64,000 bases of DNA from a virus: IMG/VR virus record IMGVR_UViG_3300008259_000009; one strand, 5' to 3'. Below the pieces are notes generated by a model. The model had not been told where the DNA came from, made no database searches, and worked only from the letters and a program-made list of their open reading frames with translations. Positions 45,928-63,199 of this stretch are shown here, piece after piece; position 1 is the stretch's first letter; every line of letters starts with the position of its first letter. The position numbers were made by a program, and so were the translations under genes.

Positions 45928-46410
45928 TTATTCGTTTGAGTAGTCAATGCTACCAACATATATATCAATACCCGTTTTTGTGGTTACTAACTCATATAAA
46001 TCACTGCCTACTTGGTCATTAATATAGTCACTGAAATCAAAATACTCGGACATATCCATATCTTTAACCGTATCTTGAACATTTTTACCAAAAACAACAA
46101 TATCAATTCCAAAAGATGTTGTAAATACTCTATTTACCTGAACATATTTCCATTTTGATAGGATATCGTCCGTATCAAGGTCAATTGGGGGTAGGTTTTC
46201 TAACATTTTTATTGTTTTCTTAATCGCAACCTCATAACCGCCCAAATACTCAACTAAAAAGTCCTGTAAATCAGGTAAATCGTTATGTTCTACATGGAAT
46301 AATGACAATACAGTATCACCAATAGATGGTTCCTTACCTTGTGAGGATAACTTATCCCAATATTTCTTAATTATGGAGAATTTTTGGTCTTCGGTGATGA
46401 TTAATTTCAT
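45928..46410 (-). CDS. Hypothetical protein with MKLIITEDQ leader
   Basis: ATATTTAT at 46415-46422. Confidence 0.75.
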   Translation of the reverse strand: MKLIITEDQKFSIIKKYWDKLSSQGKEPSIGDTVLSLFHVEHNDLPDLQDFLVEYLGGYEVAIKKTIKMLENLPPIDLDTDDILSKWKYVQVNRVFTTSFGIDIVVFGKNVQDTVKDMDMSEYFDFSDYINDQVGSDLYELVTTKTGIDIYVGSIDYSNE

Positions 46411-46421
46411 AATGATAAATA

Positions 46422-46790
46422 TTACGCCGAATATATTTCTCTACCATTGGATATTAATGTACTGAATGTGAAATTATCTGCATCATCTCCGTCATACACC
46501 CAATGTGGTCTGATTCTTGGGTTATAAGATACCGATTTACCCCCAAGATGAGGTTTTGGTGAGTTAATTATAACATTATCACAAATTATCCAAGAACACA
46601 CGGTCTTATTTGCCCCTTCATATATCCTCTGTGCCGTCTTTTTATAGTTTTTTAGTAGACAACCTTCCATAATAAGATTAACCTCATCAGGGTTAAGGTA
46701 TTTTAGTTCAGAATTGGGGTACTCTATCTTCCATTTACGATAATTTTTACCCCTACCTAAATTAAACCTGACTTTTATCTTGTCCTTCAT
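46422..46790 (-). CDS. Conserved phage hypothetical protein
   Basis: VRFNLGRGKNYRKWK..NKTVCSWI..SYNPR. Confidence 0.7.
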   Translation of the reverse strand: MKDKIKVRFNLGRGKNYRKWKIEYPNSELKYLNPDEVNLIMEGCLLKNYKKTAQRIYEGANKTVCSWIICDNVIINSPKPHLGGKSVSYNPRIRPHWVYDGDDADNFTFSTLISNGREIYSA

Positions 46791-46944
46791 CTGAGATTGT
46801 TTCCTTTGGATTTTTTAATTCCTCCAATTGGACGTGTAGCTCTTTAACATAATTTTCAATATGTTTATTTGTCTCACCCAAGTCACTATAGAATTTAATT
46901 AGTTTTTGAATGTCATTAATTTGTCTTTCAGTTACGTTGTCCAT
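46762..46944 (-). CDS. Small coiled-coil protein
   Basis: 60 aa; CTATTTAT variant upstream. Confidence 0.55.
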   Translation of the reverse strand: MDNVTERQINDIQKLIKFYSDLGETNKHIENYVKELHVQLEELKNPKETISDEGQDKSQV

Positions 46945-46971
46945 AATCTTTGAAGTATTTTTTATAAATAG

Positions 46972-47295
46972 TTAGTAGTTTATAAATGATGATTGAGCAA
47001 TTAAACTATTAAAATTGACCCTGGTTTTTATATAATCATTTGGGTATATCATCTTTATAAGTAAAAAAATAGTGTTACCTATATCCGTTAGTAAGTTTGG
47101 TATGAATTTCATATTTTCATCAAATTGGACATCAAAAACCAAAATATCCTCATACTCCGTCCCATGTGTGGTGACCCATGGTCTTAAGATAACCCCAGGA
47201 CGATGTTCACACGTCACATTTACATTTTTAATTTGCGGAAACTTTGGTATAACCAACTTATTAATCTTAATATATATGTCTGAAATCCCATCCAT
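46972..47295 (-). CDS. Hypothetical protein
   Basis: Start probably MDGISD. Confidence 0.55.
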   Translation of the reverse strand: MDGISDIYIKINKLVIPKFPQIKNVNVTCEHRPGVILRPWVTTHGTEYEDILVFDVQFDENMKFIPNLLTDIGNTIFLLIKMIYPNDYIKTRVNFNSLIAQSSFINY

Positions 47296-47308
47296 ACATA
47301 AGATTAAC

Positions 47309-47337
47309 AAAAAACCCCTTTGTTATCAAGGGGTTTC
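47309..47337 (-). terminator. Intrinsic terminator
   Basis: AACCCC..GGGGTT hairpin with T-run on minus strand. Confidence 0.65.
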
Positions 47338-47604
47338 TTTAGGTTTTTTACAAATAGGTGTCCCTTTATCATCATTAAAAATAATAAACTCACCTTTTTC
47401 TTCACCTTTAATTAATTTACCATCAGATTTAAATCCTGAACATCTTTTTAACCCATCAAGGTCTATTTTTTGTGGAATTGTGGTTGTTTGTGTTGTGGTG
47501 TCACCTGTAGTACCACCACTAGTTGGTGTTGTTTGTTCACTTATCACAACACCCTTCTTATACCCAAACAAATATTTTATTTTATCTAATTCTTCGTTAA
47601 TCAT
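47326..47604 (-). CDS. Hypothetical protein with INEE..IKYLFG..VISE leader
   Basis: Thr-rich linker, small Cys-containing domain. Confidence 0.65.
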   Translation of the reverse strand: MINEELDKIKYLFGYKKGVVISEQTTPTSGGTTGDTTTQTTTIPQKIDLDGLKRCSGFKSDGKLIKGEEKGEFIIFNDDKGTPICKKPKETP

Positions 47605-47612
47605 ACTTATAA

Positions 47613-48104
47613 TTATCTTCTTAATTCGGGAATTACCTCGTCTTGAAAGAAAACCCCAATCTCATGTTCTAACCCTTTTGTCTCATCATTGAAACTGTAG
47701 TCATTTAGTTCGTCACTTACGTTATAGAAATCATACCCTGTCAAAAACCCTCTCTTATCCGTTATAATAACCCCCAAATACTCCTCACCTTCAAATTGAA
47801 TCTCCCCGAAGTATTGAATCTCATTTTCATTTTTTAATTCTTCCGAAAAAGTAAATTTAATCATGGGTAAATTAGGAAAGCTTGATTCAAACACTCGTCC
47901 TTCTCTTTCATCATATTCAGGTTCAGGACATTTAAATTCATCAGGATTACCACCGTTTCTCATATGTTCAGAGTAAGCGTCCAAACATTTCTTTTCATCA
48001 ATGAATAACTTTTCTTTTCTAGAAATTTTATCTAATATAGCGTCAATTACTTCATTATTCTCCATTAATCTCAAATATTGTGTTTCAGATATTATTATTT
48101 TCAT
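47613..48104 (-). CDS. Hypothetical protein with MKIIISETQ leader
   Basis: IDAILDKIS helical motif. Confidence 0.7.
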   Translation of the reverse strand: MKIIISETQYLRLMENNEVIDAILDKISRKEKLFIDEKKCLDAYSEHMRNGGNPDEFKCPEPEYDEREGRVFESSFPNLPMIKFTFSEELKNENEIQYFGEIQFEGEEYLGVIITDKRGFLTGYDFYNVSDELNDYSFNDETKGLEHEIGVFFQDEVIPELRR

Positions 48105-48105
48105 A

Positions 48106-48489
48106 TTAATAAATAGCGATATTTGCTGAATAAACTCTTTTAACTTCATAATCAGGAAAGAATTTTTTAAAGGATTCATAGATTAAAAATTTTCCATGAA
48201 CATACCAAATTGGATGTGGTAATATTTTCTCAAATAATTCAGATATGGACCTATCATAGTACAAAATTTTAGATTCAGGATGATAACTGATTAAAGCCTC
48301 ACCATCCTTACCACCAAAAAGTAATATTTTACCTTCTTTTGTTTTTCCGTAAGATTTAAACAATTTCATAACCTTTGGGACTAATCTGTCTTTAACCCTG
48401 TCAAATTGTTCTTCATCTTCAACTTCATCCCAAGTCCTTTCCAACTCACAGATTTGTTTATATTGATTCTCACTGATTATAAGTTTCAT
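48106..48489 (-). CDS. Hypothetical protein with MKLIISENQ leader
   Basis: ATATTTAT at 48494-48501. Confidence 0.75.
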   Translation of the reverse strand: MKLIISENQYKQICELERTWDEVEDEEQFDRVKDRLVPKVMKLFKSYGKTKEGKILLFGGKDGEALISYHPESKILYYDRSISELFEKILPHPIWYVHGKFLIYESFKKFFPDYEVKRVYSANIAIY

Positions 48490-48510
48490 ATCAATAAATA
48501 TTCGTGAAAT

Positions 48511-48536
48511 AAAAAACCCCCGAATTCGGGGGTTTT
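48511..48536 (-). repeat. Terminator+ATATTTAT cassette
   Basis: AAAACCCCCGAATTCGGGGGTTTT, followed on minus strand by ATATTTAT. Confidence 0.75.
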
Positions 48537-48539
48537 AAC

Positions 48540-48725
48540 CTAACTTAATAAACGATTTATCTCGTTCATTACCTTCAATTGTCTTTGTTGTAATTCTTTT
48601 ATCTTGTTTAACTGTTGTTGATTCAAGTCAATAGATTCTCCTTTAATTGAAGCGATTTGATTTTGCAACCTCGTATGTTCATTTAGAAGTTGTCCGTAAT
48701 ATGCGGCTTTTTGGTCATTATTCAT
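48540..48725 (-). CDS. Small coiled-coil protein
   Basis: 61 aa. Confidence 0.6.
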   Translation of the reverse strand: MNNDQKAAYYGQLLNEHTRLQNQIASIKGESIDLNQQQLNKIKELQQRQLKVMNEINRLLS

Positions 48726-48752
48726 ATTATAATAATAATATAAGTTTATTTT

Positions 48753-49001
48753 TTATAAACCATAAATAACCACTTTATCACCTAAAAGGGACTTTGCAAC
48801 ATCAACCGCCTCATCTTTGGTTTTATATCCTTTCTCAACCAATTTCTTAGCGTGGTATACATTATATACCGTAGATGCGACATCTGGTTTGGTAAATTTA
48901 AACTTAGATTCTTTTTTAGGTTTAAATGAATCCTTAGCGTAGATATCATAGAATCCTACTTTGCAAATGTAACGTCCTTTTTGTCCTGATTTTGTTGCCA
49001 T
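48753..49001 (-). CDS. Small basic hypothetical protein
   Basis: 82 aa; TATATTTG at 49038-49045. Confidence 0.7.
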   Translation of the reverse strand: MATKSGQKGRYICKVGFYDIYAKDSFKPKKESKFKFTKPDVASTVYNVYHAKKLVEKGYKTKDEAVDVAKSLLGDKVVIYGL

Positions 49002-49058
49002 AACTTACTTTTATTTTTTAGATGATTAATAATGATACAAATATAATTAATTTTTTTA

Positions 49059-49454
49059 TTATTCCAAACTTCCCCAAGTTTTTTCAAATCTATTTTTATA
49101 TGGGTCTTTAATTCTTGACACTATCCCATAATTCTCAATACGAATTTGGTCGGGTGTGACTATAACTCTATCTCTATTATTAATGAATGTGTACACCAAT
49201 ATATAACCGCCTATATTAGGTGCAAAGTGTCTAAGAGTAAATGCGAAATCATCTTCACTATATGTGTTATTAGTCCCATCAAATTCAAATTCAGGTACAA
49301 AACTATGTTGTCCGTAGAATGCCCTCTTTATATTGGTTAGTTTAATGTTATACAGATATTTTAAACTTAGTTCTGGTTCAATTACGTATTCTACACCCTT
49401 AAAAAAGGTTTCAAAAATTCTTTGTATTAAAACTTCGTGAGGTATCATAATCAA
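49059..49454 (-). CDS. Hypothetical protein
   Basis: 131 aa. Confidence 0.65.
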   Translation of the reverse strand: MIMIPHEVLIQRIFETFFKGVEYVIEPELSLKYLYNIKLTNIKRAFYGQHSFVPEFEFDGTNNTYSEDDFAFTLRHFAPNIGGYILVYTFINNRDRVIVTPDQIRIENYGIVSRIKDPYKNRFEKTWGSLE

Positions 49455-49466
49455 ATGATAATAAAT

Positions 49467-49493
49467 AAAAAATCCCCAATCAATAGATTGGGG
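49467..49493 (-). terminator. Intrinsic terminator
   Basis: CCCCAATC-A-ATAGATTGGGG hairpin with T-run on minus strand. Confidence 0.7.
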
Positions 49494-49677
49494 TCAAGAT
49501 TAAAAAATTACCCACCCTACGGGGTGAAGTAACTTTAATTATTTATAATAATTTCTTCTATCTCTTATTACGGTAATAACTAAGAAAGAACCCGATAAAA
49601 TTAAAAACAATGGTATCATATCAATAGGTATAATAAAATAACTAAAAGGATGTTATGTAATCTTTAAGAAATTGTTA

Positions 49678-49986
49678 TTAATTTTTTCTTGGTAATAACA
49701 CTCCATCAATTTCCATATTATATTTTTTGGTAAACCATTTCTCTATTACCTTATCAAACATATAATTACTAATAGGCATCATTCGTTGGATGGAGTCTCG
49801 GTCTTTTTTACGATACTGCAGGTAATTTTTACCATAATGTTCTCTAACTTGTAATCTGATATTATCCTGACTGTAATAATTCATATATCTATCAAGATTA
49901 CTGTCACTAATACGGTCAATATCTGAATATACAGTATCAAACACTGAATCAACGGCCTTGATTAGATGTTCTTTATTAATTTTCAT
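49678..49986 (-). CDS. Hypothetical protein, WF-motif paralog family
   Basis: IEKWFTKKYNMEIDGV C-terminus. Confidence 0.7.
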   Translation of the reverse strand: MKINKEHLIKAVDSVFDTVYSDIDRISDSNLDRYMNYYSQDNIRLQVREHYGKNYLQYRKKDRDSIQRMMPISNYMFDKVIEKWFTKKYNMEIDGVLLPRKN

Positions 49987-50344
49987 TATCTAAAAATTTT
50001 TTAATGGACTTTTTAACTTTAACCTCAAGTTTATCCAAATATTCATTCCATAAGTTTTCGGCCTTTTTTGGTTCCTCGTCCATATCAACACCCACTAACA
50101 TAAAGAAACTTTTTAAATTATATCTAGCGGGTGAGGTGAAAGTAAACTCGTTAGGGTTATTAAACGCTAAATTATAAAAATTATCGGTATATGGGAATTT
50201 CATATGGGCAGCATAACTATATTTATTATAATCATATTTCATAAAACCAAAAATTTCAGTATCCCTAACAAGCATATCAATAAACTTATCATATATTTTA
50301 TATTTCGCCTTATTGTATTGCTCTTCAGTTAAAATCACTTTCAT
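49976..50344 (-). CDS. Hypothetical protein with MKVILTEEQ leader
   Basis: ATATTTAT at 50350-50357. Confidence 0.75.
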   Translation of the reverse strand: MKVILTEEQYNKAKYKIYDKFIDMLVRDTEIFGFMKYDYNKYSYAAHMKFPYTDNFYNLAFNNPNEFTFTSPARYNLKSFFMLVGVDMDEEPKKAENLWNEYLDKLEVKVKKSIKKFLDNEN

Positions 50345-50420
50345 TATTTATAAATATCTTGTATTTGTTTTCAAATATAAGAACTATTTTTATTATATTT
50401 GTTTTATAAAACTAATGGAT

Positions 50421-50963
50421 ATGAAAAATGTAATTGTAATATTGGTAATGGTGTTGGGTCTGAATGTTTTTGGTCAAAACAGTTTGCTTGAAATTAATCA
50501 CTACCCAAATGTATCTACCGATACAATACCATTTGCTGACAGTCTTCACACTAAGACTTTTTACAATATGGATACATATGTAAAATTGGTCCTCCTTTAT
50601 ATTAACGAGGAAAGAAAATCTCACGGTCTTAATCCATTAGTTATGGATAAAAAACTAATGGGTATAGCTCAAAAACATAGTGATTATATGGCCAGATGGG
50701 CGAACTACAAACACTCAGGATTAAATTATGTTGAGGTAATAAATCGCATAAATAGTATTGAGGTTTGTTCACATAAAGAAAATGCGGGATGTGCGGTTAA
50801 ACAATGGATGCACTCTGAAGCGCATAGAAATGCGTTATTGGACCCTAAACTTAAAACATTTGGTATCGGAGTCCAAGAAAATACGTCAGGAATATATGTT
50901 CATGGAGGTGAAAAATATAACGTAGTTAACAACACTTATTTCACCGTTATCTTTCAATACTAA
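50421..50963 (+). CDS. Secreted CAP/SCP-domain protein
   Basis: Signal peptide; INEERKSHGLNPL, AQKHSDYM, WMHSEAHRNALL, FGIG; TATATTTG at 50394-50401. Confidence 0.88.
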   Translation: MKNVIVILVMVLGLNVFGQNSLLEINHYPNVSTDTIPFADSLHTKTFYNMDTYVKLVLLYINEERKSHGLNPLVMDKKLMGIAQKHSDYMARWANYKHSGLNYVEVINRINSIEVCSHKENAGCAVKQWMHSEAHRNALLDPKLKTFGIGVQENTSGIYVHGGEKYNVVNNTYFTVIFQY

Positions 50964-52198
50964 TCTCTCTGAACCCATTTATCTGCAGGTACCCGATTAC
51001 CATATGTGTGGTCGGGTACTTTTGTCCCTTCAGGTAAACGATTAGTAGCATTATCGGAACTCGCATATCCACTGATGTTTGCTCCTAACTCAACTAAACG
51101 AAAATCCTCAATTTTTTTAGCTTTCATTAAATTATTAATACCATCAAATAATTGTTTATACGTTTCAGGTTTAATTGAAATCATATTATCCTTAAAAAAA
51201 TTGTCATCCAATTTATATGAACCCAAGTCAAACCATTCTTCAGTAGAACCAGATTTAACGGCTCCTGGTACAACACCCTCAACACTTGGCTCCATTCGTT
51301 TAATTACAATATCAGTACCATTAGGGTTATTTACCGATAATATTTTACCTTTTCTACCCGTACCTAAATCACCAAATATGTAATTACCCGCACCACCTGT
51401 AGAGCTTGTGAAGTTGTGTTGTCTTGCATTTGGGTTCTTTAATGATTCGTCGGTCCTGAAATCATCCGCAGTATAATCGGCGATAAAGTTAGCCATCTCT
51501 TTAAATTTATCCACATTATTGGCGTCAAAATGAACTCTACTTTTTTCTCTAGCGGTGTAACCAAATTTTTCTTGGGTAATCGGAATCATAATCCCATATA
51601 TCGTTTCAGCTCTATTAGGACCTTCGGCACTTCCACCTCCGACAGTTTGATTAACAATCTTCGCATTATACTCGGCTGGTATTTTTTCTAAATATTTATT
51701 AAATCTGTTTACCCACGTTGTACTACCTTTAGTAGAATCAAGTTTTTCAGGAGAACCTTTACCTAGTTGTGTTACCAATATGTGTGGAACTCCCCCAATC
51801 TCATAAAAATTATAAAGTATTGTATAAGGGTACATCTCTTGTTTTTCAGGTTCCTTTTTCATTTTACCATAAAAAGTCCCAATAACATATTGGTTCGCAT
51901 CACCAGCACCTAAAACTTTTGTTTCATTAACTCTAACATTTTGTTCTTCAATACTCCCTTTAAATTGAGATAAAAGGTAATTTTTTAATGAAATGGCTCT
52001 ATTAGATGCTAACCATTCATTGCCACCATCAATTCTGATATAACCTATAGATGGATTATAATTTGCAATGCCTGCGGGTAATGCATCTAACTTAAACGTT
52101 AAGTTTGAGAACTTTTTAAAAGCGGGATTTGTTTGCTCTTGCAAACCCATCATATTTTTAATACGTCTAATTTCTTCGTTTAATAAATTTTGTTTCAT
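50960..52198 (-). CDS. Putative virion protein with OmpA-C-like motifs
   Basis: LLNEEIRRIKNMMGLQE leader; NEWLASNRAISLKNYL and ISGYASS motifs. Confidence 0.65.
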   Translation of the reverse strand: MKQNLLNEEIRRIKNMMGLQEQTNPAFKKFSNLTFKLDALPAGIANYNPSIGYIRIDGGNEWLASNRAISLKNYLLSQFKGSIEEQNVRVNETKVLGAGDANQYVIGTFYGKMKKEPEKQEMYPYTILYNFYEIGGVPHILVTQLGKGSPEKLDSTKGSTTWVNRFNKYLEKIPAEYNAKIVNQTVGGGSAEGPNRAETIYGIMIPITQEKFGYTAREKSRVHFDANNVDKFKEMANFIADYTADDFRTDESLKNPNARQHNFTSSTGGAGNYIFGDLGTGRKGKILSVNNPNGTDIVIKRMEPSVEGVVPGAVKSGSTEEWFDLGSYKLDDNFFKDNMISIKPETYKQLFDGINNLMKAKKIEDFRLVELGANISGYASSDNATNRLPEGTKVPDHTYGNRVPADKWVQRD

Positions 52199-52823: not shown

Positions 52824-53390
52824 TTAAAATTCAGTCTCCAAGTCATACCCCATTTTATCGGTATATTTCTCTTGTAATACTTTATTAACAATTGATATTA
52901 CTTCATCCCTATAATCCTCAACAAGGTTAAAGAACTCATCGTCATAGTTTGGGTCATCGTCATATAAATCATCATAAATACTTCTACCATTCTCAGTAAT
53001 TGAGTCCAAGTCAATCTCCATTCTCATATGAACATATTGATTTGGAACGCTAACCTCAATTTCCCATAGTGTTACCAAAAAAGAAATATTATTCCACTCA
53101 AATCGTAATTTTCTACCACTATCAGTTTCGTCTGTTAAATATAAACCAGGTCTTACCTCAAATAATGTAAAATCAGCTTTTAGGTATTTAAGGGGGTCAA
53201 CACCATTTTTTTTGTTCCATTCTAATACCCAATGTTGTATTGTTGTGTATTGGTGAAAAAATAATCCAAATAATTTGATTTTAGTCATATCGTAATTGGC
53301 GTACCCCTGTTTATCCCAAAGTCTAAACAACATATTTTTTTGAGCTTCAATAACCGAATTTTGATTTTCTCTTATAATTACTTTCATCAT
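52824..53390 (-). CDS. Hypothetical protein with MKVIIRENQ leader
   Basis: LFRLWDKQG resembles 45928 KKYWDKL. Confidence 0.72.
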   Translation of the reverse strand: MMKVIIRENQNSVIEAQKNMLFRLWDKQGYANYDMTKIKLFGLFFHQYTTIQHWVLEWNKKNGVDPLKYLKADFTLFEVRPGLYLTDETDSGRKLRFEWNNISFLVTLWEIEVSVPNQYVHMRMEIDLDSITENGRSIYDDLYDDDPNYDDEFFNLVEDYRDEVISIVNKVLQEKYTDKMGYDLETEF

Positions 53391-53701
53391 TCAACAGGTA
53401 TTACTGTAGGTTTACCAAATGGTTCTAAGACATGTGTAAAATACTCGTTAACAAATCTCAAATGGTCGGAATCAACTCGGTTACCATAAACATCAACAAA
53501 AATTAATACTCGGTGTGACATAACTTTAACCATTGTGACTTTGATTCTATCTATTACATTTATATATGATAAATACCAATTACCCGAAGACACTTCTTCA
53601 TCTTTATATCTTTGTTTTAACACATTCCATTCATCATCAATTTTATTTTGATAAAATGAATGTAATTTATTCTCGGTATTTTCATTAATTATAACTTTCA
53701 C
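53387..53701 (-). CDS. Hypothetical protein with MKVIINE leader
   Basis: Translationally coupled; IDRIKVT motif shared with 54180. Confidence 0.72.
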   Translation of the reverse strand: MKVIINENTENKLHSFYQNKIDDEWNVLKQRYKDEEVSSGNWYLSYINVIDRIKVTMVKVMSHRVLIFVDVYGNRVDSDHLRFVNEYFTHVLEPFGKPTVIPVE

Positions 53702-54180
53702 GATAAATAATTATTCACTAACATTTCAAATAGTTTATTTAAGTATTTAGTTTCCAATTTGTTAACACGAACATCATAATCATCAAAATATTCGTCATAC
53801 ATCTGACCATCTTCATCAAATTCCCATACCGTAACATGGGCGAATAAGTTGTCATTATAATTCTCAATAAAATCAATATAAGATTCAAATGTGTGGCCAT
53901 CATCACCATCAAATTCGTCATACAAAATATCGGAATCTACTTCAGATAAATAGATTCTACCCCCGCCACCATAAACAGGATGTTGTTCATCAAGTCCAAT
54001 TATTTCTTTAATTAAATCTATCTTACTTTCTCTTGAATCAAAGTAATCGGGTAAAAGAGTTATGAAATTATCGTACCCTCCCATGAACTTAATGGTATTT
54101 AATAATCCATTATTATCAATCATACCCATTAGTTTATGACTAATACCTTTTTTTTGTTCTTCTGTGACTACTATTCTCAT
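53698..54180 (-). CDS. Acidic hypothetical protein with MRIVVTEEQ leader
   Basis: TAATG coupling with upstream gene. Confidence 0.72.
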   Translation of the reverse strand: MRIVVTEEQKKGISHKLMGMIDNNGLLNTIKFMGGYDNFITLLPDYFDSRESKIDLIKEIIGLDEQHPVYGGGGRIYLSEVDSDILYDEFDGDDGHTFESYIDFIENYNDNLFAHVTVWEFDEDGQMYDEYFDDYDVRVNKLETKYLNKLFEMLVNNYLS

Positions 54181-54566
54181 TACCATTGGGGATTTTCATT
54201 TTTTAGGTCCACATTGTCTTCTATTATTTTAAGTTTGACACCCCTATCTCTTCCAAATGTAAGTCCCTTAACATAATACTCTAAATGAAACAATAGATTA
54301 GATGTGTCAAAAAATTTAATTGAGTCCAAAACTATATTAACATGAATGTTAACCACCATAATATTTGCACCAGGGTAAGTTTCATCGTAAATATCAACAT
54401 TAGTAACCTTAATACTATCAACACTTTCAATATCATCTAAAACACGAGGGTCAACCCAATCAGGAACATTATCAGGACCATCAATACTAATCAATTCAGA
54501 CACACACTTATCAATTAATGATTGATATAGATTAACCATTTTATTTTCGGTAATTAATACTTTCAT
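54180..54566 (-). CDS. Hypothetical protein with MKVLITENK leader
   Basis: TAATG coupling. Confidence 0.72.
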   Translation of the reverse strand: MKVLITENKMVNLYQSLIDKCVSELISIDGPDNVPDWVDPRVLDDIESVDSIKVTNVDIYDETYPGANIMVVNIHVNIVLDSIKFFDTSNLLFHLEYYVKGLTFGRDRGVKLKIIEDNVDLKNENPQW

Positions 54567-54895
54567 TATGCCTCAACCCTTTTTAAAACGTATATTCTAA
54601 CCTCCCATTTACTTCCATATTCTTGCAAACCTAAACCAAACATAGAATCAAGACCAACCTTGATACTCCCTTTTAACTTCGCAACAACATCATAATTAAC
54701 CGATTCACCTCCTGTTAAAATATTATGAGGGTCCATTGTAATCTCAATAGTTTTCCTTTGTATTATTTCATCATTACGGCTAGCCAGCATAACAGGTTTG
54801 GTATTAAAGGAAACGGTAATTACTTCAGGAAATGAAGTTTTAATGAATCGCTCAATTGTCCCTTCTAATCTGTCTTCAGTTATAAGATATTTCAT
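54566..54895 (-). CDS. Hypothetical protein with MKYLITEDR leader
   Basis: ATATTTAT at 54901-54908. Confidence 0.75.
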   Translation of the reverse strand: MKYLITEDRLEGTIERFIKTSFPEVITVSFNTKPVMLASRNDEIIQRKTIEITMDPHNILTGGESVNYDVVAKLKGSIKVGLDSMFGLGLQEYGSKWEVRIYVLKRVEA

Positions 54896-54968: not shown

Positions 54969-55697
54969 TTAGGGTGTAATAAGTTTTAAACCATCGGTTG
55001 GTAATATAAGTCTATGACTACCACTTTGATTGGTGATACCATCAATTGTAGAGGTACCTCCATTAATCGTGATTGTTAATTTAGTACCGTCATTTACATA
55101 TCCTAAAATTGTTTTTTTAAGTTCTTGATATTCGTTAGGATTTATTTTGTGAGTTATTACTTTATCAGTAGATGCCGTTCCTGTAGTCACAGGAGTTGCG
55201 GGAACATTTTTATTATCCCCTGTTGTAGGGAATTGATGCTGTTCTCTTACTACCCCACCACTTTGGACTTTTTTAGGTAAAATCCATCCTAATTGTCCTA
55301 AACAAACGTTTTTGGGCATATTAACACCAATGTAATTTAAATGACCACAAAATTTTTCAGTTGATGGGACATCACTAAAGTCACCTTTAAATAAAGTTGC
55401 AATATCTTCACCTTTTGATTTTGCGATAGCATCAATTCTACCATACTCATTTTTGTCTTTAATAGAATATAGAGCCTTAAAAAACGCATCTTCATTAGTT
55501 CCAGCACCTTTAACGGATTGGTATAACAAGTTATATTTTTGTTCGTCGTAATTTTCATTCAGTAACGGTTTAACGTTACCCAACTCAGACTCCATTAATG
55601 ATTTAAAACGTTCAGCATTAATTTTTATTTCCGCACCATATTGTTCAAGAATACCATTCTTTTCTTCATCACTTAAACCGTTTAATATATGTTTCAT
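54969..55697 (-). CDS. Protein with annexin-like repeat
   Basis: LYQSVKGAGTNEDAFFKAL..GEDIATLFKGDFS after PLLNE junction; ATATTTAT at 55712-55719. Confidence 0.7.
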   Translation of the reverse strand: MKHILNGLSDEEKNGILEQYGAEIKINAERFKSLMESELGNVKPLLNENYDEQKYNLLYQSVKGAGTNEDAFFKALYSIKDKNEYGRIDAIAKSKGEDIATLFKGDFSDVPSTEKFCGHLNYIGVNMPKNVCLGQLGWILPKKVQSGGVVREQHQFPTTGDNKNVPATPVTTGTASTDKVITHKINPNEYQELKKTILGYVNDGTKLTITINGGTSTIDGITNQSGSHRLILPTDGLKLITP

Positions 55698-55775: not shown

Positions 55776-56090
55776 TTACATACCTCTTCTTGTTCTTACT
55801 TTAAATGGTCTTTGTTTAACTTCTCTATATTTGTCAAACATTTTTTTACCGTGTTCTCCACGACCAAACCATTTAGTGTCTTCTCCGTGCTTAGATTCAA
55901 AATCTTCAAAGTCCTCAAACTTTTCTTCATCAAAGTCTTCATCACCCATATCATCAAAGCTAGCTCTTCTATCTGATTCATCGTACCATTCCTCATCGTC
56001 AAATGAACCAAATTTTTTACCTTCATTGATAACTCGTTTAACGATTCTCATCAAATCAGATTCTGTTAATCTTATAACTCTTTTTGCCAT
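55776..56090 (-). CDS. Acidic protein with long RLTESDL..VKRVINE leader
   Basis: ATATTTAT at 56107-56114. Confidence 0.8.
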   Translation of the reverse strand: MAKRVIRLTESDLMRIVKRVINEGKKFGSFDDEEWYDESDRRASFDDMGDEDFDEEKFEDFEDFESKHGEDTKWFGRGEHGKKMFDKYREVKQRPFKVRTRRGM

Positions 56091-56407: not shown

Positions 56408-56911
56408 TTAACCAAACAAAGATTTTAATATTTCTTTGTCTTCATCACTCAAAGCATTCCACCATTCATCATTATCAATATCAGGTAAACCACCAAAATA
56501 AGAGTCATCAGTCATTCCTGATTCCTTACAAATTTTTGTTCCAACACTTTTTAGAATTATATATTCGTCACATTTATGTTTGTACGGATTTCTAACATTA
56601 TTAAACACCACACTATAATTTAAATCAATGTAGTTAGCCGCACTTGTTAGTATTTCTTCAAGATGAGACGGGACATCATACCTACCTTCATCCCACATTG
56701 TATCATCATAACTTAAATCTTTAATCAAAAAAGGTACCTTATCCCCAATAGCATTTACACGAATAACATAATCAGTGGTGTCTCTTGATTTGAAGTGGTG
56801 TTCATTTACTTTATCAACCTCAAACTTCAAGTCAAGACCATATCTGTCTTTGATAATCTTACTACCAAGAGTATTAAGTATTTTTTCAATTGCCGCGATT
56901 GGGTGTTCCAT
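56408..56911 (-). CDS. Hypothetical protein
   Basis: 167 aa; ATATTTAT at 56917-56924. Confidence 0.7.
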   Translation of the reverse strand: MEHPIAAIEKILNTLGSKIIKDRYGLDLKFEVDKVNEHHFKSRDTTDYVIRVNAIGDKVPFLIKDLSYDDTMWDEGRYDVPSHLEEILTSAANYIDLNYSVVFNNVRNPYKHKCDEYIILKSVGTKICKESGMTDDSYFGGLPDIDNDEWWNALSDEDKEILKSLFG

Positions 56912-57221: not shown

Positions 57222-57581
57222 TCAATAATCTTTAAAATGTCGTTCACCGTTAATATAGTAATAAACTCTACCCACATTAAGTCGGGTATTATGAGTAAAC
57301 CACTCAACAAATATATCAACCCAATTTGCACCAAAAGTTTGAGTTAAGGTATTTGACACCCTACCAAAAATCCATAATGTGTCCTCCTCATTATTATTCT
57401 TATTCAAAGACCAATATTCATAAGCACCATCCCCATCAATATCAAAGTCAATTGCCCCGAATTTATCCATCATATTACGATAATCAATTGCCTTTTCAAA
57501 ACCACCATCAGGGGTATATAGACTATCAAGATAAGATTTGACAGCTAAAGTATATTTGGATTCTGTTATTATTAATTTCAT
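57222..57581 (-). CDS. MKLIITESK leader, WF-motif paralog
   Basis: FVEWFTHNTRLNV C-terminus; paralog of 61092. Confidence 0.75.
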   Translation of the reverse strand: MKLIITESKYTLAVKSYLDSLYTPDGGFEKAIDYRNMMDKFGAIDFDIDGDGAYEYWSLNKNNNEEDTLWIFGRVSNTLTQTFGANWVDIFVEWFTHNTRLNVGRVYYYINGERHFKDY

Positions 57582-57592
57582 ACTAATATATA

Positions 57593-58381
57593 TTATACAA
57601 AGGCGGATATAATATCATCTATTGATAATCCAATAGGGGGTAATCCCAAAAGTTCAATTACTTTTGATTCCGAATAAGTTCTATTCATATAATCACCAAT
57701 AACTTTATTACCATCTCTATTTTGATATAGTAGGTTTTTTTCATTGGTTTTGATTAGATATAATGGTCCATACTTATTAATATAGACATCCAAAATACGA
57801 GGATTTATTAGATTATCAAATTCTATTGGTAAATCATATCTATCATTAATTCTTTCAATCATACCTGTTAAGTCAACACCCAACCTGTCAATGATAAGAT
57901 TTTTTAATTTTGATTCAATTAAAAAACTTTCTTTAATGTTCTTTTTCTTCTTAACATTATATTTGTTCGTTTTACTAGTATAAAAAGCATTTTCATCATC
58001 GCTTTGGCCAGGGTCATGAATAAAGTCATAATCATACTGAACACAATCGCATTTAATACCAAGTTCATCGTATACATACTGAACCAAAACCTTTGAGAAT
58101 AACTTTGTTTTAAACAACGGAATAAATCTCTCCAACATATGAGAAAACTCACCATCCAAAGTTAAATCTCTTTTACATCCTTCGTTTGCCATGGTGGGAG
58201 GAAACCATATTGTCATTGGTGAAATATCGTCAAGGATATTACTTTTACCATAAATATATATTGATTGTATCGTTCTTTCATCATTTTCATACATATTCTC
58301 GTATCTTAACTCACCCAAAATAGTTTTTAGGAGTTTATACGCCACATTCTTATATTGTTTTTTTGTAATTACGACTTTCAC
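57593..58381 (-). CDS. Two-domain protein with MKVVITKKQ leader and internal IKE/LIE junction
   Basis: ATATTTAT at 58386-58393. Confidence 0.72.
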   Translation of the reverse strand: MKVVITKKQYKNVAYKLLKTILGELRYENMYENDERTIQSIYIYGKSNILDDISPMTIWFPPTMANEGCKRDLTLDGEFSHMLERFIPLFKTKLFSKVLVQYVYDELGIKCDCVQYDYDFIHDPGQSDDENAFYTSKTNKYNVKKKKNIKESFLIESKLKNLIIDRLGVDLTGMIERINDRYDLPIEFDNLINPRILDVYINKYGPLYLIKTNEKNLLYQNRDGNKVIGDYMNRTYSESKVIELLGLPPIGLSIDDIISAFV

Positions 58382-58398
58382 AATAATAAATATCTCCG

Positions 58399-58749
58399 TT
58401 ACCTAAACTTATCTTGAATTCTATTGACGAGATGTTTCCTTGCAACATTCATAAAATAATCTTGCACAATATCGGGGGGAACCATATTAAATGGTGTTAT
58501 GTCGTGTGGACTAGGCCAAGATACATTAATTCCTTTCTCAGGGATATTACCTTTTTTATCAATATAAAAGACATATTCAATCCTTCTTTTACGGCCTTCA
58601 ATATTAAACCAAAGATACACCACATAGTATTCTCTACGCATTGTATCTTCGTTCTTATATCCATACTCAGGTGTGACCTCAATATTACCAATCTCTAGTA
58701 ACCTGTCAATGATTTCTTTAGATGTTTTTTCTGTAATTAGGACTTTCAT
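58399..58749 (-). CDS. MKVLITEK leader, EYG paralog family
   Basis: IEVTPEYG..VYLWF..DIVQDYF; paralog of 59200 N-half and 62846. Confidence 0.75.
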   Translation of the reverse strand: MKVLITEKTSKEIIDRLLEIGNIEVTPEYGYKNEDTMRREYYVVYLWFNIEGRKRRIEYVFYIDKKGNIPEKGINVSWPSPHDITPFNMVPPDIVQDYFMNVARKHLVNRIQDKFR

Positions 58750-58770
58750 ATATGATAAATACAATCTTTA

Positions 58771-59139: not shown

Positions 59140-59168
59140 AAAACAAAGATATAAAATTAATATGAAAT

Positions 59169-59192
59169 AAAAAACCCACCTGATGAGATGGG
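59169..59192 (-). repeat. Terminator cassette
   Basis: AAAAAACCCACC-TGATGA-GATGGG, followed here by a TAnnTTTG promoter. Confidence 0.78.
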
Positions 59193-59199
59193 ATATTTT

Positions 59200-60552
59200 T
59201 TATAATGCAATTTTAACCTGTGATTTTAAATAATCAGATTGTTGTACAATTTTTGTTAACAATTTTTTATACTCGGTTGGGTTTTTTGAAGATAGAATGT
59301 CAAAATGTTCTTTCACGAATTTTTCATCATAACCCAAAAGTTTTTTCATGTTAGGTGTTATATCTTTTTTAACACCTTTACCCCAATTAATTATATCGTC
59401 CAAAGTTTTAATGGTCACCTCTTTACCTAAACTTTTCATATATTTTTTTGTATTAGTACTAATACCATTTAATATTTTGGAGGTATTAGCAACAAGTTCT
59501 CTTGGGTGAAAATAATATGAGTTAGAAAAATATTCATCACTATATCTTTTAGTACCTGATTTATATTTTTTCATTAATTTTGAACTAACGGATGATGGGT
59601 CTTTAATATGTGCCAATTCATGATAGAACAATTGGTCAATATCGGTAGGTGACATTTTCTTTACGTTATCTATACTAAACAATAAATAATCATCCACCGC
59701 AAACCCGTAGCTACTACGGTAATTTTCACCCCACCATCTAACGGCATCATCAGATGTTATAAATAATACAGGGACATTTTTAACACCCGTCTTTGTTGTA
59801 ACCTTTACTGAATGTCGTAATGGTTTAATATATTTCCTTAAAGTTAATGCTTTAGTTGCGGATGATGGTATATTTTTTACTTGTGAAGTTATTTTATGAA
59901 TTTGAGATATTTCATCTTTAGTAAATTTAACCCCAAATTTAGAAACAAAATTCGCCATATTAGGTTTTGCGGTTTTTGAGGACTCTAAAGAACTCAAAAA
60001 TTTCTTCCTATCAATTTTTTTACTTAAAAAACTTTGCACAAGTTTATCATATGATTCTTTACCAAATCTTTTAATATAAATCGGTTTTAACGTATTAACA
60101 TAACTTAATATTGGTTTTGTTTCTTTAGTACCTCTAGAAAATAATTTTAAGAAATCCCCCAATACACCTTCGTTAATATTATCATCGGTAACCCACCATT
60201 TTGGGTTGCGACGCCTTTCCTCATACATATCCTCAAGAAATTGTCTTGTTTTCTTAATAAAATAACCATTGACAATATCTTTAGGGAGAAATGAAAACTC
60301 ATCTATTGTCCGAACATCATCATAATAATCAAGTTTACCAATATTATCCACACCACGAACAACATACCAATAACGAAATGGCAATTTAAATTTACGACCA
60401 TTAATGGTGAACCAAATATTAACACCATCATAAACTCTCCCGACAACATCATAAGTTTTTGCGCCATATTCAATTTCGTACTCAATGTTCTTCATCTTCA
60501 GGAGTTTCTCCATTGCACCACTTGTCTGTTCTTCTGAGATAATAATCTTCAT
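59200..60552 (-). CDS. Fusion: EYG-family domain + zincin metallopeptidase, MKIIISEEQ leader
   Basis: FYHELAHIKD plus FHPRELVAN; NINE junction; ATATTTAT at 60557-60564. Confidence 0.8.
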   Translation of the reverse strand: MKIIISEEQTSGAMEKLLKMKNIEYEIEYGAKTYDVVGRVYDGVNIWFTINGRKFKLPFRYWYVVRGVDNIGKLDYYDDVRTIDEFSFLPKDIVNGYFIKKTRQFLEDMYEERRRNPKWWVTDDNINEGVLGDFLKLFSRGTKETKPILSYVNTLKPIYIKRFGKESYDKLVQSFLSKKIDRKKFLSSLESSKTAKPNMANFVSKFGVKFTKDEISQIHKITSQVKNIPSSATKALTLRKYIKPLRHSVKVTTKTGVKNVPVLFITSDDAVRWWGENYRSSYGFAVDDYLLFSIDNVKKMSPTDIDQLFYHELAHIKDPSSVSSKLMKKYKSGTKRYSDEYFSNSYYFHPRELVANTSKILNGISTNTKKYMKSLGKEVTIKTLDDIINWGKGVKKDITPNMKKLLGYDEKFVKEHFDILSSKNPTEYKKLLTKIVQQSDYLKSQVKIAL

Positions 60553-60678
60553 ACCAATAAATATATCATAAAATAAATCGCGGCGGGCGGGGACCAAAAG
60601 AAAAACGACCGAAGGTCGGACACGGTGAACGAAAATTTATCTTTTTTCTCCTTTTTTATTCCAAAATTATATAAGCAT

Positions 60679-60706
60679 AAAAAACCCCACTTATGATGAG
60701 GTGGGG
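60679..60706 (-). repeat. Terminator cassette
   Basis: AAAAAACCCCAC-TTATGATGAG-GTGGGG. Confidence 0.75.
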
Positions 60707-60729
60707 ATTTAATTTAATTCAAAAATTAT

Positions 60730-61038
60730 TTAAAATTCATCTTCATTACCAAGAATATCCTGAATATCGGCCCCATAATAATCAGTAATATAGTTTGCTA
60801 AAATCTCAGATAAGTCATTTTGTAATCTACCCAAAATTTCTTCGGACAAATCCATTGCCATGTCTCTCATAGATTCATCATAACCATCATAATCGTTAAG
60901 AACATCCTTAACCTCTCTAAATATATCTTGTACAGTAATGGTTATAGATGAGCCTCCCATTTCATCATCATCTTCTTTAATAACTCGTTTAACGATTCTT
61001 TTTAAATCTGATTCTGTTAATCTTACAACTTTTTTCAT
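60730..61038 (-). CDS. Acidic protein with long RLTESDL..VKRVIKE leader
   Basis: ATATTTAT at 61055-61062. Confidence 0.8.
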   Translation of the reverse strand: MKKVVRLTESDLKRIVKRVIKEDDDEMGGSSITITVQDIFREVKDVLNDYDGYDESMRDMAMDLSEEILGRLQNDLSEILANYITDYYGADIQDILGNEDEF

Positions 61039-61091
61039 AATATCTTTTTTAATAATAAATATATTGTATTAATAAAAACTCCCACATTATA

Positions 61092-61445
61092 TCAATCATT
61101 CTTAAATGCATCAGCTTTTAAATCGTCATCATAATAACTTGTCCAATCAACCTTAAGTCCCGTGTTTTGTTCAAACCATTTTGTAACCACGGGAACCCAC
61201 TTATTGTGAAACAATCTATTAAGGTCTTGACTCATTTCATTAAATACCATTAATGATTTTCCATCACCCCAATCTGTGTAATAATACATCCGTTCATCAT
61301 TAACATAAAAATTAATATCCCCATGTTTATTAACTTCTTCTCTATAATAATCATCACCAACCCAATTATAGTCGGGGTAAAATTTTAAATCAAGATATCT
61401 AATGATTCCTTGTTCGTACTTAGATTCGGAGATGATTACTTTCAT
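61092..61445 (-). CDS. MKVIISESK leader, WF-motif paralog
   Basis: VTKWFEQNTGLKV; ATATTTAT at 61450-61457. Confidence 0.75.
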   Translation of the reverse strand: MKVIISESKYEQGIIRYLDLKFYPDYNWVGDDYYREEVNKHGDINFYVNDERMYYYTDWGDGKSLMVFNEMSQDLNRLFHNKWVPVVTKWFEQNTGLKVDWTSYYDDDLKADAFKND

Positions 61446-61466
61446 AATGATAAATATACTAAAAAT

Positions 61467-61495
61467 AAAAAACCCCACCTGTTAGGGTGGGGTTT
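61467..61495 (-). repeat. Terminator+ATATTTAT cassette
   Basis: AAAAAACCCCACC-TGTTAG-GGTGGGG. Confidence 0.8.
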
Positions 61496-61517
61496 CAAAG
61501 AATATCTTATAAAACAT

Positions 61518-62069
61518 TTAACGAATATTTCTTATCTCACCAGTGGTGGCGTTATATTCATATTTATTTTTATTATCAATGGTCACAATAACATATGGTG
61601 GTTCAATTTGGGTACTATAATTATAAGAGTCCAATTCTGGATTAATTTCCTCAATTTTTTTCAATATATAATTTTCCATCCATTCTTCCAATTCCCCATG
61701 CAAGATTTCCCTTTGTATTGTATTTTTTATGGAATTACCAATTTTTTTAAATGGTTTTTTAACAGCATCCCATATTTTACCTTCACCAAGCTCTGATTCA
61801 AGGTCTTTTGAGTTTATCTTATTTAAAGCCCATTTCTTTAAATTATGTGCAACATCTTCATCAGCGGTTGCTCGTGAATAATTGCTAACAAATCTAATTT
61901 GTTTGTCCTCATCCATGGAATTAAAGTCAATGTCTTTACCAAGTTCAGTTCTAAGAACATCATTCATAAAATCAGAGACCTCCTCATCAGACCAAATATT
62001 TGATTCTTTAATAACCCTTCTAACAATACGAGTTAACTCTGATTCTGTTAATCTTACAATCTTTTTCAT
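61518..62069 (-). CDS. Protein with long RLTESEL..VRRVIKE leader
   Basis: ATGA coupling with 62066 gene. Confidence 0.8.
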   Translation of the reverse strand: MKKIVRLTESELTRIVRRVIKESNIWSDEEVSDFMNDVLRTELGKDIDFNSMDEDKQIRFVSNYSRATADEDVAHNLKKWALNKINSKDLESELGEGKIWDAVKKPFKKIGNSIKNTIQREILHGELEEWMENYILKKIEEINPELDSYNYSTQIEPPYVIVTIDNKNKYEYNATTGEIRNIR

Positions 62070-62377
62070 TTTTTACATTTATTTTTTTTAAATCTTCTTA
62101 TTTTTGCGCCACAAAGATTAAATTCGTCAGACCTTTCAGCATCTTCTTGAGCGGAAAAAGCTCTATTTAATAAATTCCATTTGTCTTCCATATTATTTAT
62201 TTTACCACATTCAGAATCTTTAATATTTTCAACCTCTTTATATAAAGATTTAATTTCACCCATAAATTCACCGTGATTCATTTTAGCATATTTATGATGA
62301 GGTTTTTCATTTTCACTAATCACTCGTTTAACGATTTTCATCAAATCTGATTCGGTTAATCTTATAACTTTTTTCAT
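62066..62377 (-). CDS. Protein with long RLTESDL..VKRVISE leader
   Basis: ATATTTAT at 62392-62399. Confidence 0.8.
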   Translation of the reverse strand: MKKVIRLTESDLMKIVKRVISENEKPHHKYAKMNHGEFMGEIKSLYKEVENIKDSECGKINNMEDKWNLLNRAFSAQEDAERSDEFNLCGAKIRRFKKNKCKK

Positions 62378-62427
62378 ATTAATTTTTATTTATAAATATT
62401 AGGTAAAAACAAAAAACGGGGGACTAA

Positions 62428-62844
62428 TTAACTACGAACAAACTTATCGGTAGAATAATCATCAATCACTTGTTTAATGGGATAATCATATGTTGATTCA
62501 AACCAAACCTTTAATAAATCATTAAACTTAGAACCAAACATTTCCAACATAGATTTAAAAGAATATTTAGAATAAATTAATAGCGGTGTTTGGAAACCAT
62601 CAACAGGTTCGTTGTATGGGGGGTTCTCAGCATACTGAAATACCCAATCGTCATCTTCCCACCAACTATTATTATCATCATTATCATCAATATTATAAAA
62701 ATTAAGCGGGGAGTAATCAATATAAGTATTCTTATTATAATCATAATAGTCATAATCCCTTTCATGTTCATATAAATTAGCAAACTCTAACATCATACTG
62801 TTGAATAGGGACTGTAATTTATCTTCCGTAATTAATACTTTCAT
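62428..62844 (-). CDS. MKVLITEDK leader, WF-motif paralog
   Basis: LKVWFESTYDYPIKQV. Confidence 0.75.
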   Translation of the reverse strand: MKVLITEDKLQSLFNSMMLEFANLYEHERDYDYYDYNKNTYIDYSPLNFYNIDDNDDNNSWWEDDDWVFQYAENPPYNEPVDGFQTPLLIYSKYSFKSMLEMFGSKFNDLLKVWFESTYDYPIKQVIDDYSTDKFVRS

Positions 62845-62845
62845 C

Positions 62846-63199
62846 TCAATCGTCAAAATTTATTATTGGTAATAACTTATCCAAATAAACTCTTGCTCTC
62901 TCAATAAAGTAACCATTAACAAGTTCCCTGGGGATGGATTCAAACTCATCTGTAATGCTAGCAAGGTCACCATGACTTACCATCTTAATGATATAATCCT
63001 TTTTTGTTTTGAAGGTTACCAATCTTGAATGCTCGTAAATTTGATTGGGATATTTAAACCAAACATTAACAACATCGTATTGTCCACCATCAGTGCTATA
63101 AGACCTAAGCCCATATTCATAATGAATCTCAATACCCCTCTTGTTAAGGATACCCTCAATCATTTTATCTCTATTTGATTCGTTAAGAATGATTTTCAT
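62846..63199 (-). CDS. MKIILNESN leader, EYG paralog family
   Basis: IEIHYEYG..VNVWF..ELVNGYF; ATATTTAT at 63206-63213. Confidence 0.75.
   Translation of the reverse strand: MKIILNESNRDKMIEGILNKRGIEIHYEYGLRSYSTDGGQYDVVNVWFKYPNQIYEHSRLVTFKTKKDYIIKMVSHGDLASITDEFESIPRELVNGYFIERARVYLDKLLPIINFDD

Follow-up and report, generated by a model that had tools for sequence, protein, structure and literature searches.

Why should two dozen proteins of one phage, with largely unrelated bodies, begin with the same short peptide? The question is raised by a 64,000-nt stretch of viral DNA, IMG/VR record IMGVR_UViG_3300008259_000009 (here called the window; coordinates refer to it unless another sequence is named). 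A first-pass annotation of its letters had picked out a recurring N-terminal leader and proposed that it directs its bearers into the phage head, in the manner of the capsid-targeting sequence (CTS) of T4 internal proteins. The leader is a real and conserved peptide module, and a T4-like role for it is, on balance, probable.

Leader-bearing genes in the window

A six-frame listing of open reading frames (ORFs), combined with a motif scan, gives 24 leader-bearing ORFs, 19 of a short type and five of a long type. The short leader reads M-K-(0-2 K/T)-h-h-h-(T/S/N/R)-E or a close variant (h, hydrophobic), typically MK-h-h-I-(T/S)-E; the long leader reads M(A)K(K/R)(V/I)(I/V)RLTES(D/E)LxxxV(K/R)RVIxE, typically MKKVIRLTESDLxRIVKRVIxE. 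Of the 24, 21 are on the minus strand, and 20 fall within 45.9-63.2 kb. The window proteome contains the string K[ILVYF][ILV][ILV][TSNR]E 16 times, versus 0.5 +/- 0.7 times in shuffles, and the density of the core motif is 21-fold higher in the first 12 residues of proteins than elsewhere. The pattern is not due to chance.

The bodies behind the leaders do differ, as first proposed: with the first 24 residues stripped, the 24 proteins fall into 21 BLAST families, the paralogue sets being 58749/60552/63199 and 57581/61445 (named by start position). All five long-leader starts listed in the first-pass annotation are present (337, 56090, 61038, 62069, 62377), as are the 19 short-leader starts, on ORFs of 102-450 aa, with a few corrections. 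The gene given as starting at 53390 exists and is better set at 53387 (MMKVIIRE), those at 53701 and 58381 have the leader and initiate at GTG, and the leader-like start at 58381 is MKVVITKK, in which Lys takes the place of Glu. The “near-identical DNA” ascribed to the long leaders was an overstatement, since the five have 46-57 of 66 bases in common (70-86%) and are more alike as peptides (~85-95% identical). The genes are as follows, with distances of an upstream TATTTAT motif where present.

5..337, minus: long leader (MKKVIRLTESDLTRFVKRVINE..., 110 aa); TATTTAT 4 nt before ATG
11159..12364, minus: short leader (MKKLLITESEKDNILGLY..., 401 aa); TATTTAT 15 nt upstream; no Pfam match
16101..16730, plus: short leader (MKTTILITEEQK..., 209 aa); TATTTAT 6 nt upstream
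34432..35271, plus: short leader, 279 aa, consisting of leader, helix, acidic/Ser-rich linker and GH19-like domain (GH19 E 0.0028)
45928..46410, minus: short leader (MKLIITEDQK..., 160 aa, net charge -14); TATTTAT 4 nt before ATG
47613..48104, minus: short leader (MKIIISETQY..., 163 aa, net charge -19); TATTTAT 4 nt before ATG
48106..48489, minus: short leader (MKLIISENQY..., 127 aa); terminator 48536-48513, then TATTTAT 4 nt before ATG
49976..50344, minus: short leader (MKVILTEEQY..., 122 aa); TATTTAT 5 nt before ATG
52824..53387, minus: short leader (MKVIIRENQN..., 187 aa); within an operon, without a promoter motif of its own
53387..53701, minus: short leader, GTG start (MKVIINENTE..., 104 aa)
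53698..54180, minus: short leader (MRIVVTEEQKK..., 160 aa, net charge -21); its body recurs with a long leader in the metagenome homologue P0012
54180..54566, minus: short leader (MKVLITENKM..., 128 aa); within an operon
54566..54895, minus: short leader (MKYLITEDRL..., 109 aa); TATTTAT 5 nt before ATG
55776..56090, minus: long leader (MAKRVIRLTESDLMRIVKRVINE..., 104 aa, acidic body); terminator 56149-56132, TATTTAT 16 nt upstream
57222..57581, minus: short leader (MKLIITESKY..., 119 aa); modelled with AlphaFold2
57593..58381, minus: variant short leader with Lys for Glu, GTG start (MKVVITKKQY..., 262 aa); TATTTAT 4 nt before GTG
58399..58749, minus: short leader (MKVLITEKTS..., 116 aa); paralogue of 63199 and of the 60552 N-domain
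59200..60552, minus: short leader (MKIIISEEQT..., 450 aa); paralogous N-domain, NINE-GVL, basic C-terminal part with HELAH; TATTTAT 4 nt before ATG
60730..61038, minus: long leader (MKKVVRLTESDLKRIVKRVIKE..., 102 aa, net charge -14); TATTTAT 16 nt upstream
61092..61445, minus: short leader (MKVIISESKY..., 117 aa), paralogue of 57581; terminator 61496-61469, TATTTAT 4 nt before ATG
61518..62069, minus: long leader (MKKIVRLTESELTRIVRRVIKE..., 183 aa); start overlaps the end of the upstream gene
62066..62377, minus: long leader (MKKVIRLTESDLMKIVKRVISE..., 103 aa); modelled with AlphaFold2; orthologues 64-99% identical; TATTTAT 14 nt upstream
62428..62844, minus: short leader (MKVLITEDKL..., 138 aa, net charge -16); within an operon
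62846..63199, minus: short leader (MKIILNESNR..., 117 aa); terminator 63247-63229, TATTTAT 6 nt before ATG

A longer ORF (5-481) covers the first of these genes; it begins at an upstream GTG that is an unlikely start. Three looser variants were left out of the 24:

13108..14277, minus: looser long-leader variant (MKNRININERELKTSIRKVLNE-Q..., 389 aa) with the same hydrophobic/charged spacing, ending in VLNE
21801..22307, plus: looser variant (MKKYIIDENKLRKAIRQHILE-S..., 168 aa); TATTTAT 20 nt upstream
50960..52198, minus: looser variant (MKQNLLNE-EIRRIKNMMGLQEQ..., 412 aa)

Anatomy of the leader

The limits of the leader were read from a collection of 345 unique leader proteins, from the window and from related contigs (1.78 Mb). 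Positions 1-20 of the long form are conserved at 66-100%, except for the variable position 13, with 83-100% given for the run up to V19-I20; at its end, position 20 is Ile in 86% (Val in 9%), position 21 is variable, and Glu22 is present in 98%, with nothing conserved beyond. A conservation stop at I-x-E22 is what a module ending at an (I/V)-x-E cut would show. Short leaders have Glu after MK-h-h-h-(T/S) in 183 of 191 cases (96%), versus 25% for the same string away from N-termini. Both ends, I-x-E22 in the long form and I-T-E in the short one, match the (L/I)-x-E consensus of gp21, the T4 prohead protease.

Selection on the leader acts at the protein level, because at invariant residues the synonymous codons vary freely (3-5 each for Leu, Arg, Thr, and Ser). 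Leu7, for example, is encoded by TTA, CTA, CTT, or TTG, Arg18 by AGA, CGA, CGT, or AGG, and Ser by both TCN and AGT codons. A nucleotide-level signal as the main cause was rejected on this ground. The peptide is also retained by intra-operon leader genes without their own promoter (starts 53387, 54180, 54566, and 62844).

Short and long leaders are versions of one module. They have the core (I/L)-T-E-S-(D/Q)-L in common, a hybrid of the two has been found (MKIIITEDQYEQLTNIVKRVISE, L065:5642-6490), and one body carries a short leader in the window (53698-54180) and a long one in metagenome protein P0012. AlphaFold2 models, made for one protein per leader type, predict residues 1-8 as unpaired coil of lower confidence and a helix from residue 9 to 21-23. 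For the short-leader product of 57222..57581 these are a coil at low predicted local confidence (pLDDT) and a helix at 9-21 (predicted TM score, pTM, 0.78); for the long-leader product of 62066..62377 the coil is again at 1-8 and the helix at 9-23. A Foldseek search of the former model (57225-57581) against the PDB gave no match at E<=0.001.

A possible capsid-targeting role

These features lead us to favor, with some reserve, the reading that the leaders are a lineage-specific, much expanded counterpart of the T4 CTS, cut by a gp21-type protease; packaging and cleavage would both follow by analogy with T4. Each leader opens with eight extended residues that include (I/L)-T-E, after which comes an amphipathic helix that in the long form ends in (V/I)-I-x-E22. 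Leader genes would be expressed late, and the leader would dock its protein onto the core of the assembling prohead. A gp21-type prohead protease would then cut after the Glu of (I/L)-x-E, freeing the cargo inside the head, from which it would exit with the DNA at infection. This cargo would comprise cell-wall hydrolases and many small, mostly acidic orphans, which may be anti-defence or takeover factors. The T4 background on which the first-pass annotation drew (the CTS, its removal by gp21, and polymorphic ip loci) is borne out by the literature (PMC9026906, PMC3012670, PMC12373910).

No head genes lie within the window, and the head module was therefore examined in leader-bearing relatives. 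Peptidase_S77 (PF03420, the family of T4 gp21) is found in 14 of 15 leader-bearing IMG/VR records, including all five that are at least 90% complete; the exception, G001, is 76% complete. Capsid protein gp23 (PF07068) is found in four of the five leader-bearing records searched, G001 again being the exception. The prohead protease that the first-pass annotation suggested looking for is thus a regular companion of the leader among these relatives. Two genes of the window recur at 75-78% DNA identity in the closest of them, G005, whose orthologue of the 62066-62377 protein is 67% identical. The G005 head genes (terL, portal, gp21, an acidic gp22-like scaffold, and gp23) are in T4 order, with gp21 at L096:16190-16927. 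In alignment, capsid proteins of the clade read (H/F)LINE-ATS where T4 gp23 has FLTE-AEIGG, the known gp21 site (PMC9026906), and LINE-A is accordingly the predicted capsid maturation site in the relatives. Structure prediction with the G005 gp22 scaffold and the first 45 residues of a G005 long-leader protein returned a score of 0.00, which gives no answer either way.

Some further features of this module were noted. The gp22-like scaffold ORF (G005, L096, 17278-18783), which has a long Asp/Glu-rich tract, has a TTG start overlapping a TATTTAT; an ATG 21 nt downstream is likelier, giving MTKNKNVIEE-A. A gene for ribosomal protein bS21 lies at 115460-115612 (minus) in G005, between portal-side genes and gp21, and bS21 is also present in G002 and G004. 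Flavobacterium phage immuto, which has the closest cultured capsid protein (33% identity), was considered as a model and rejected, as it does not have the short-leader pattern.

Cargo and two-module proteins

The recognizable cargo domains all act on peptidoglycan: M23 plus GH19, lysozyme plus LysM, PG_binding_1, and GH19. The GH19 family has a regular layout of leader and helix, acidic Ser-rich linker, and enzyme. The GH19 assignment made earlier for the gene at 34432 is weak when taken alone (E 0.0028) and gains from a homologue, L038:16529-17719, in which Peptidase_M23 and GH19 are both above cut-off. The window also encodes a leaderless paralogue with GH19 and PG_binding_1 domains (29037-29855, plus), which is likely the endolysin; a tagged second lysin at 34432-35271 would fit a virion-borne enzyme. 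Apart from these, the cargo consists of small orphans, and Pfam and PHROGs searches left nearly all the bodies without a family. For the 59200 protein, the name “zincin” comes from its HELAH motif and a sub-threshold PF18894 match.

In six metagenome proteins (P0023, P0025, P0028, P0030, P0036, P0044) the long leader occurs twice, at the N-terminus and again internally. A Met is missing from several of the internal copies, and in 6-7 of 19 an [ILV]-x-E stands directly before the copy, as in SIFE-NKKVVRLTE. Such proteins could be fused cargo modules or polyproteins. Similar junctions had been proposed inside window proteins, and they do exist. In the 59200-60552 protein, NINE-G lies ~10 residues past a domain that has stand-alone paralogues as well, and [ILV][ILV]NE is 3-fold enriched in the window proteome (15 versus 4.9 +/- 2.0 expected). 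As polyprotein cleavage sites these are suggestive only. Protease-jointed cargo would fit, on small numbers.

The protein of 11159..12364 has Gly-rich hydrophobic segments in its C-terminal part and, ahead of them, near residues 96-118, a second leader-like stretch, KLITES...VLLNE-G (KLITESTKNISHLKSDFKVLLNE-G). In several larger proteins without a strict leader, (V/L)LNE or LINE occurs close to the N-terminus or where domains seem to meet; they are encoded at 9759-11153, 13108-14277, 19610-20197, 20199-20822, and 54969-55697, all on the minus strand.

Upstream motif and expression

In the window, 74% of leader genes versus 20% of other genes have the motif TATTTAT in the 60 nt before them, and in G005 it lies 13-35 nt upstream of terL, gp21, gp23, and tail-fibre genes. 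Its spacing from the start codon is bimodal, at 4-6 nt or 12-20 nt, both in the window and in the relatives G004 and G005; the 4-6 nt class would give leaderless or near-leaderless mRNAs. Examples of the motif are at 46411-46421, 48490-48500, 60553-60563, and 61446-61456, and the same spacing is seen at genes whose products have no leader peptide (6999-7529, 12411-12662, 27188-28948, 56408-56911). Intrinsic terminators are 3.4-fold enriched in the leader array (26 versus 7.6 expected), and TATTTAT often follows a terminator. Genes taken as early, and the tRNA array, have the Bacteroidota-type TAnnTTTG in place of TATTTAT. A scan for sigma-70-type promoters found no enrichment (110 versus 117 expected). 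The spacing raises the question of whether late genes are expressed via leaderless mRNAs together with a phage ribosomal protein.

Spread of the leader

A 30-position profile of the long leader, a check suggested in the first-pass annotation, matched 8,224 of 1.84 billion cluster representatives from public metagenomes at E<=0.001, and 770 at E<=1e-10, nearly always at the N-terminus: 136 of the best 150 matches start at residues 1-4, and five more resemble mis-called starts. With the long-leader protein alignment as query, more than 593 pattern matches were obtained in IMG/VR; the confirmed ones number 382, and the contigs that carry them reach 322 kb. A locus search with a single variable cargo (61518-62069) as query had found nothing. 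The same pattern search in 185,579 bacterial and archaeal species genomes gave three weak matches, and the leader thus appears to be phage-specific. Within the 1.78 Mb of related contigs, the 345 leader proteins (median length ~120 residues) fall into 189 body families, of which 135 are singletons. A megablast search of the leader array against 50,697 phage records gave no match.

The relatives also have a tandem family, not found in the window, of ~100-120-residue proteins starting MKYLITESQLDKVIFRYLDNQDF; it counts 36 members from 11 sources, and one relative can have as many as six side by side (L100:12040-14179, L011:13779-17939, L067:1189-3547, L038:217-3652).

Weighing the explanations

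Any explanation has to accommodate what was observed: the motif, its N-terminal position, protein-level selection, modularity, spread, co-occurrence with a T4-type head module, and the conservation boundary. The capsid-targeting proposal is consistent with gp21, gp22, and gp23 in the relatives, the LINE-A site, the I-x-E end, the free residues 1-8, TATTTAT, and cell-wall cargo. Other points weigh against it. The leader has no homology to the T4 CTS, MKTYQEFIAE, with only the M-K start and h-x-E end in common (CTS: 10.1101/2021.01.19.427310). The gp21 gene was seen in relatives rather than in the window phage's own genome, and TATTTAT is read as a putative late-type promoter from its position upstream of genes alone. 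[ILV].E is common by chance in the window proteome (379 observed versus 317 expected). Bodies are mostly acidic (median net charge -3 to -4), where T4 IPII and IPIII are basic, and a tblastn search of a leader protein against the 50,697 phage records gave no match, so that cultured phages appear to be without the leader. Internal copies in two-module proteins mean that the N-terminal position is not obligatory. Finally, the short-leader motif is more than a bare protease site, because conservation extends to Thr at P2 and to the residues that follow Glu (S/N, Q/K, L/Y), and the helix after them is part of the predicted fold (pLDDT ~90).

Some of this evidence could also be explained by a docking or oligomerization module for a non-capsid partner, either a host machine or a cytoplasmic phage hub, in which case I-x-E would be a structural feature of the helix. 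Conservation does run past the minimal protease site (T at P2, S/Q/L after Glu, the amphipathic helix), in one short-leader protein the helix is packed into the predicted fold, internal copies exist, and small acidic proteins resemble cytoplasmic takeover or anti-defence factors. Left unexplained, however, are the sharp stop at variable-21/Glu-22, the near-invariant Glu itself, the tag on peptidoglycan hydrolases, and the TATTTAT common to head genes, and no candidate partner was identified. Docking of this kind is the strongest of the alternatives and still unlikely.

It is less probable again that the leader is merely the first codons of a mobile expression cassette, with terminator and TATTTAT promoter, which would serve translation of (near-)leaderless late mRNAs and provide homology for shuffling, the peptide having no targeting role. 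TATTTAT is 4-6 nt before the ATG in most short-leader genes, with bimodal spacing genome-wide, terminators are enriched in the array to the extent given above, leaders swap between bodies, and the clade encodes its own bS21, proposed to favor late phage mRNAs (PMC9723584). A cassette would not account for residues that stay invariant while synonymous sites vary freely, for the peptide kept by the four promoterless intra-operon genes, or for long-leader DNA identity of merely 70-86%; moreover, other genes with 4-6 nt spacing, and head genes, do without the peptide.

The only known-domain cargos act on peptidoglycan (M23, GH19, lysozyme, LysM, PG_binding_1), which might suggest a non-classical export or lysis-timing signal to the envelope, cell-wall hydrolases included. 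This is improbable, as the charged leader lacks a hydrophobic core, hydrophobic runs of at least 15 residues are absent from the bodies, and most cargos are small acidic orphans. The window's secreted proteins use ordinary signal peptides, one on a protein with a type IX secretion system (T9SS) domain (44171-45364) and one on a CAP-domain protein (50313-50963). A Sec or lipoprotein signal peptide was rejected, because MK-hhh-T-E is followed by charged residues with no hydrophobic h-region.

A tag recognized by a modifying enzyme, as in precursors of ribosomally synthesized and post-translationally modified peptides (RiPPs), has general precedent in leaders shared by diverse small proteins and is the least probable reading: no radical-SAM gene (PF04055) was found in five leader-bearing genomes 96-100% complete (a control search was positive in 14 of 14 genomes), on which ground this version was rejected, no enzyme consistently adjoins the arrays in the window or in G004 and G005, and cargos of 100-450 residues are predicted to be folded proteins.

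A bolder form of the capsid-targeting reading is tentative, and distinctly more doubtful than the plain one. It would have programmable cargo loading, in which one address peptide sends thousands of protein families to the heads of T4-type jumbo phages throughout a widespread clade that infects freshwater Bacteroidota, acting at the N-terminus or between polyprotein modules, with cuts at (I/L)-T-E and (I/V)-x-E. Many of the genes would be on leaderless late mRNAs, possibly aided by bS21, and the acidic orphans would be a large reservoir of injected anti-defence proteins. If the capsid-targeting reading holds, proteins loaded into the capsid and injected would form a large and rapidly evolving class of genes in abundant freshwater jumbo phages, and the T-even coliphages would no longer be the sole case. 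Candidate injected effectors and virion-borne lysins could be found by the thousand with the leader as a simple sequence rule, and a defined tag with its cognate protease could be tried for protein packaging in Bacteroidota phages. Use of the leader as an engineering tag, raised in the first-pass annotation, is speculation.

The phage and its neighborhood

The window is AT-rich (GC ~30%) and has 14 tRNA genes. It encodes a protein with a signal peptide and a T9SS C-terminal sorting domain (Por_Secre_tail, E 4.7e-8; 44171-45364, minus), which points to a Bacteroidota host. The CAP-domain protein (E 6.4e-18) with a signal peptide, at 50313-50963 (plus), is the sole plus-strand gene inside the leader array; G005 has comparable signal-peptide proteins directly after its capsid gene. 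From translations alone, 23892-25763, 26747-28948, and 32515-32940 appear to encode a full-length DnaK/Hsp70, a sensor-kinase-like protein with an adjacent receiver-domain-like protein, and an FKBP-like protein.

Comparison with known systems

A literature search found no description of this leader. The closest precedent is the T4 CTS, which is sufficient for packaging foreign proteins and is removed by gp21 (PMC9026906, PMC3012670, PMC12373910). In T-even phages, the ip loci encode variable injected anti-restriction proteins with only the N-terminal packaging leader in common (PMC12373910, PMC3012670), and ~10 Ip types have been described (PMC12373910). The likeness lies in a short N-terminal peptide on unrelated non-essential proteins, an (L/I)-x-E gp21 end, hypervariable loci, and a T4-type head module (PMC9026906, PMC3012670, PMC12373910). 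The leader here differs in having two parts (an extended segment and a helix) and as many as 22 residues, and in its number, with ~20-25 or more leader genes per genome versus three in T4. Its putative cargo is mostly acidic and includes cell-wall hydrolases, and there are internal copies and two-module proteins.

Other T4 head-internal proteins have N-termini of the same format: Alt MELITE, gp67 MEGLIE, gp68 MLLIPE, gp21 MNEPQLLIE, and gp22 MLKEQLIAE (PMC9026906). Alt is packaged, processed by gp21, and injected (PMC9026906). Its propeptide (MELITE-LFDE) and the other four N-termini resemble the leader in having M-x-h-h-(T)-E within the first 6-10 residues, MKLIITE being nearest to MELITE. 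Alt, however, is a single large enzyme with no tag family, and the resemblance spans 4-5 residues, which does not amount to evidence of homology.

To our knowledge, the propeptides on head and ejection proteins of the giant phages phiKZ, 201phi2-1, and SPN3US are long and protein-specific, with no single portable tag. These phages are similar in having a large capsid and many head-internal proteins cut C-terminal to Glu by a T4-related prohead protease (PMC9026906); they differ in their cleavage motif (separate logos are given for T4, phiKZ, and SPN3US, PMC9026906) and in a genome organization that is not T4-type.

From its relatives, we infer that the window phage belongs among the bS21-encoding freshwater Bacteroidetes phages (Chen et al., 2022, PMC9723584). 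As in those, bS21 in G005 is on the reverse strand inside the terL-portal-protease-capsid block, and the sizes, up to 322 kb, agree as well. Shared N-terminal leaders did not turn up in term searches of that paper. The principle, then, is known from T-even phages; what is new is the sequence of the tag and its two-part form, the scale, the clade and its host, a cargo that includes cell-wall enzymes, and proteins built of two modules.

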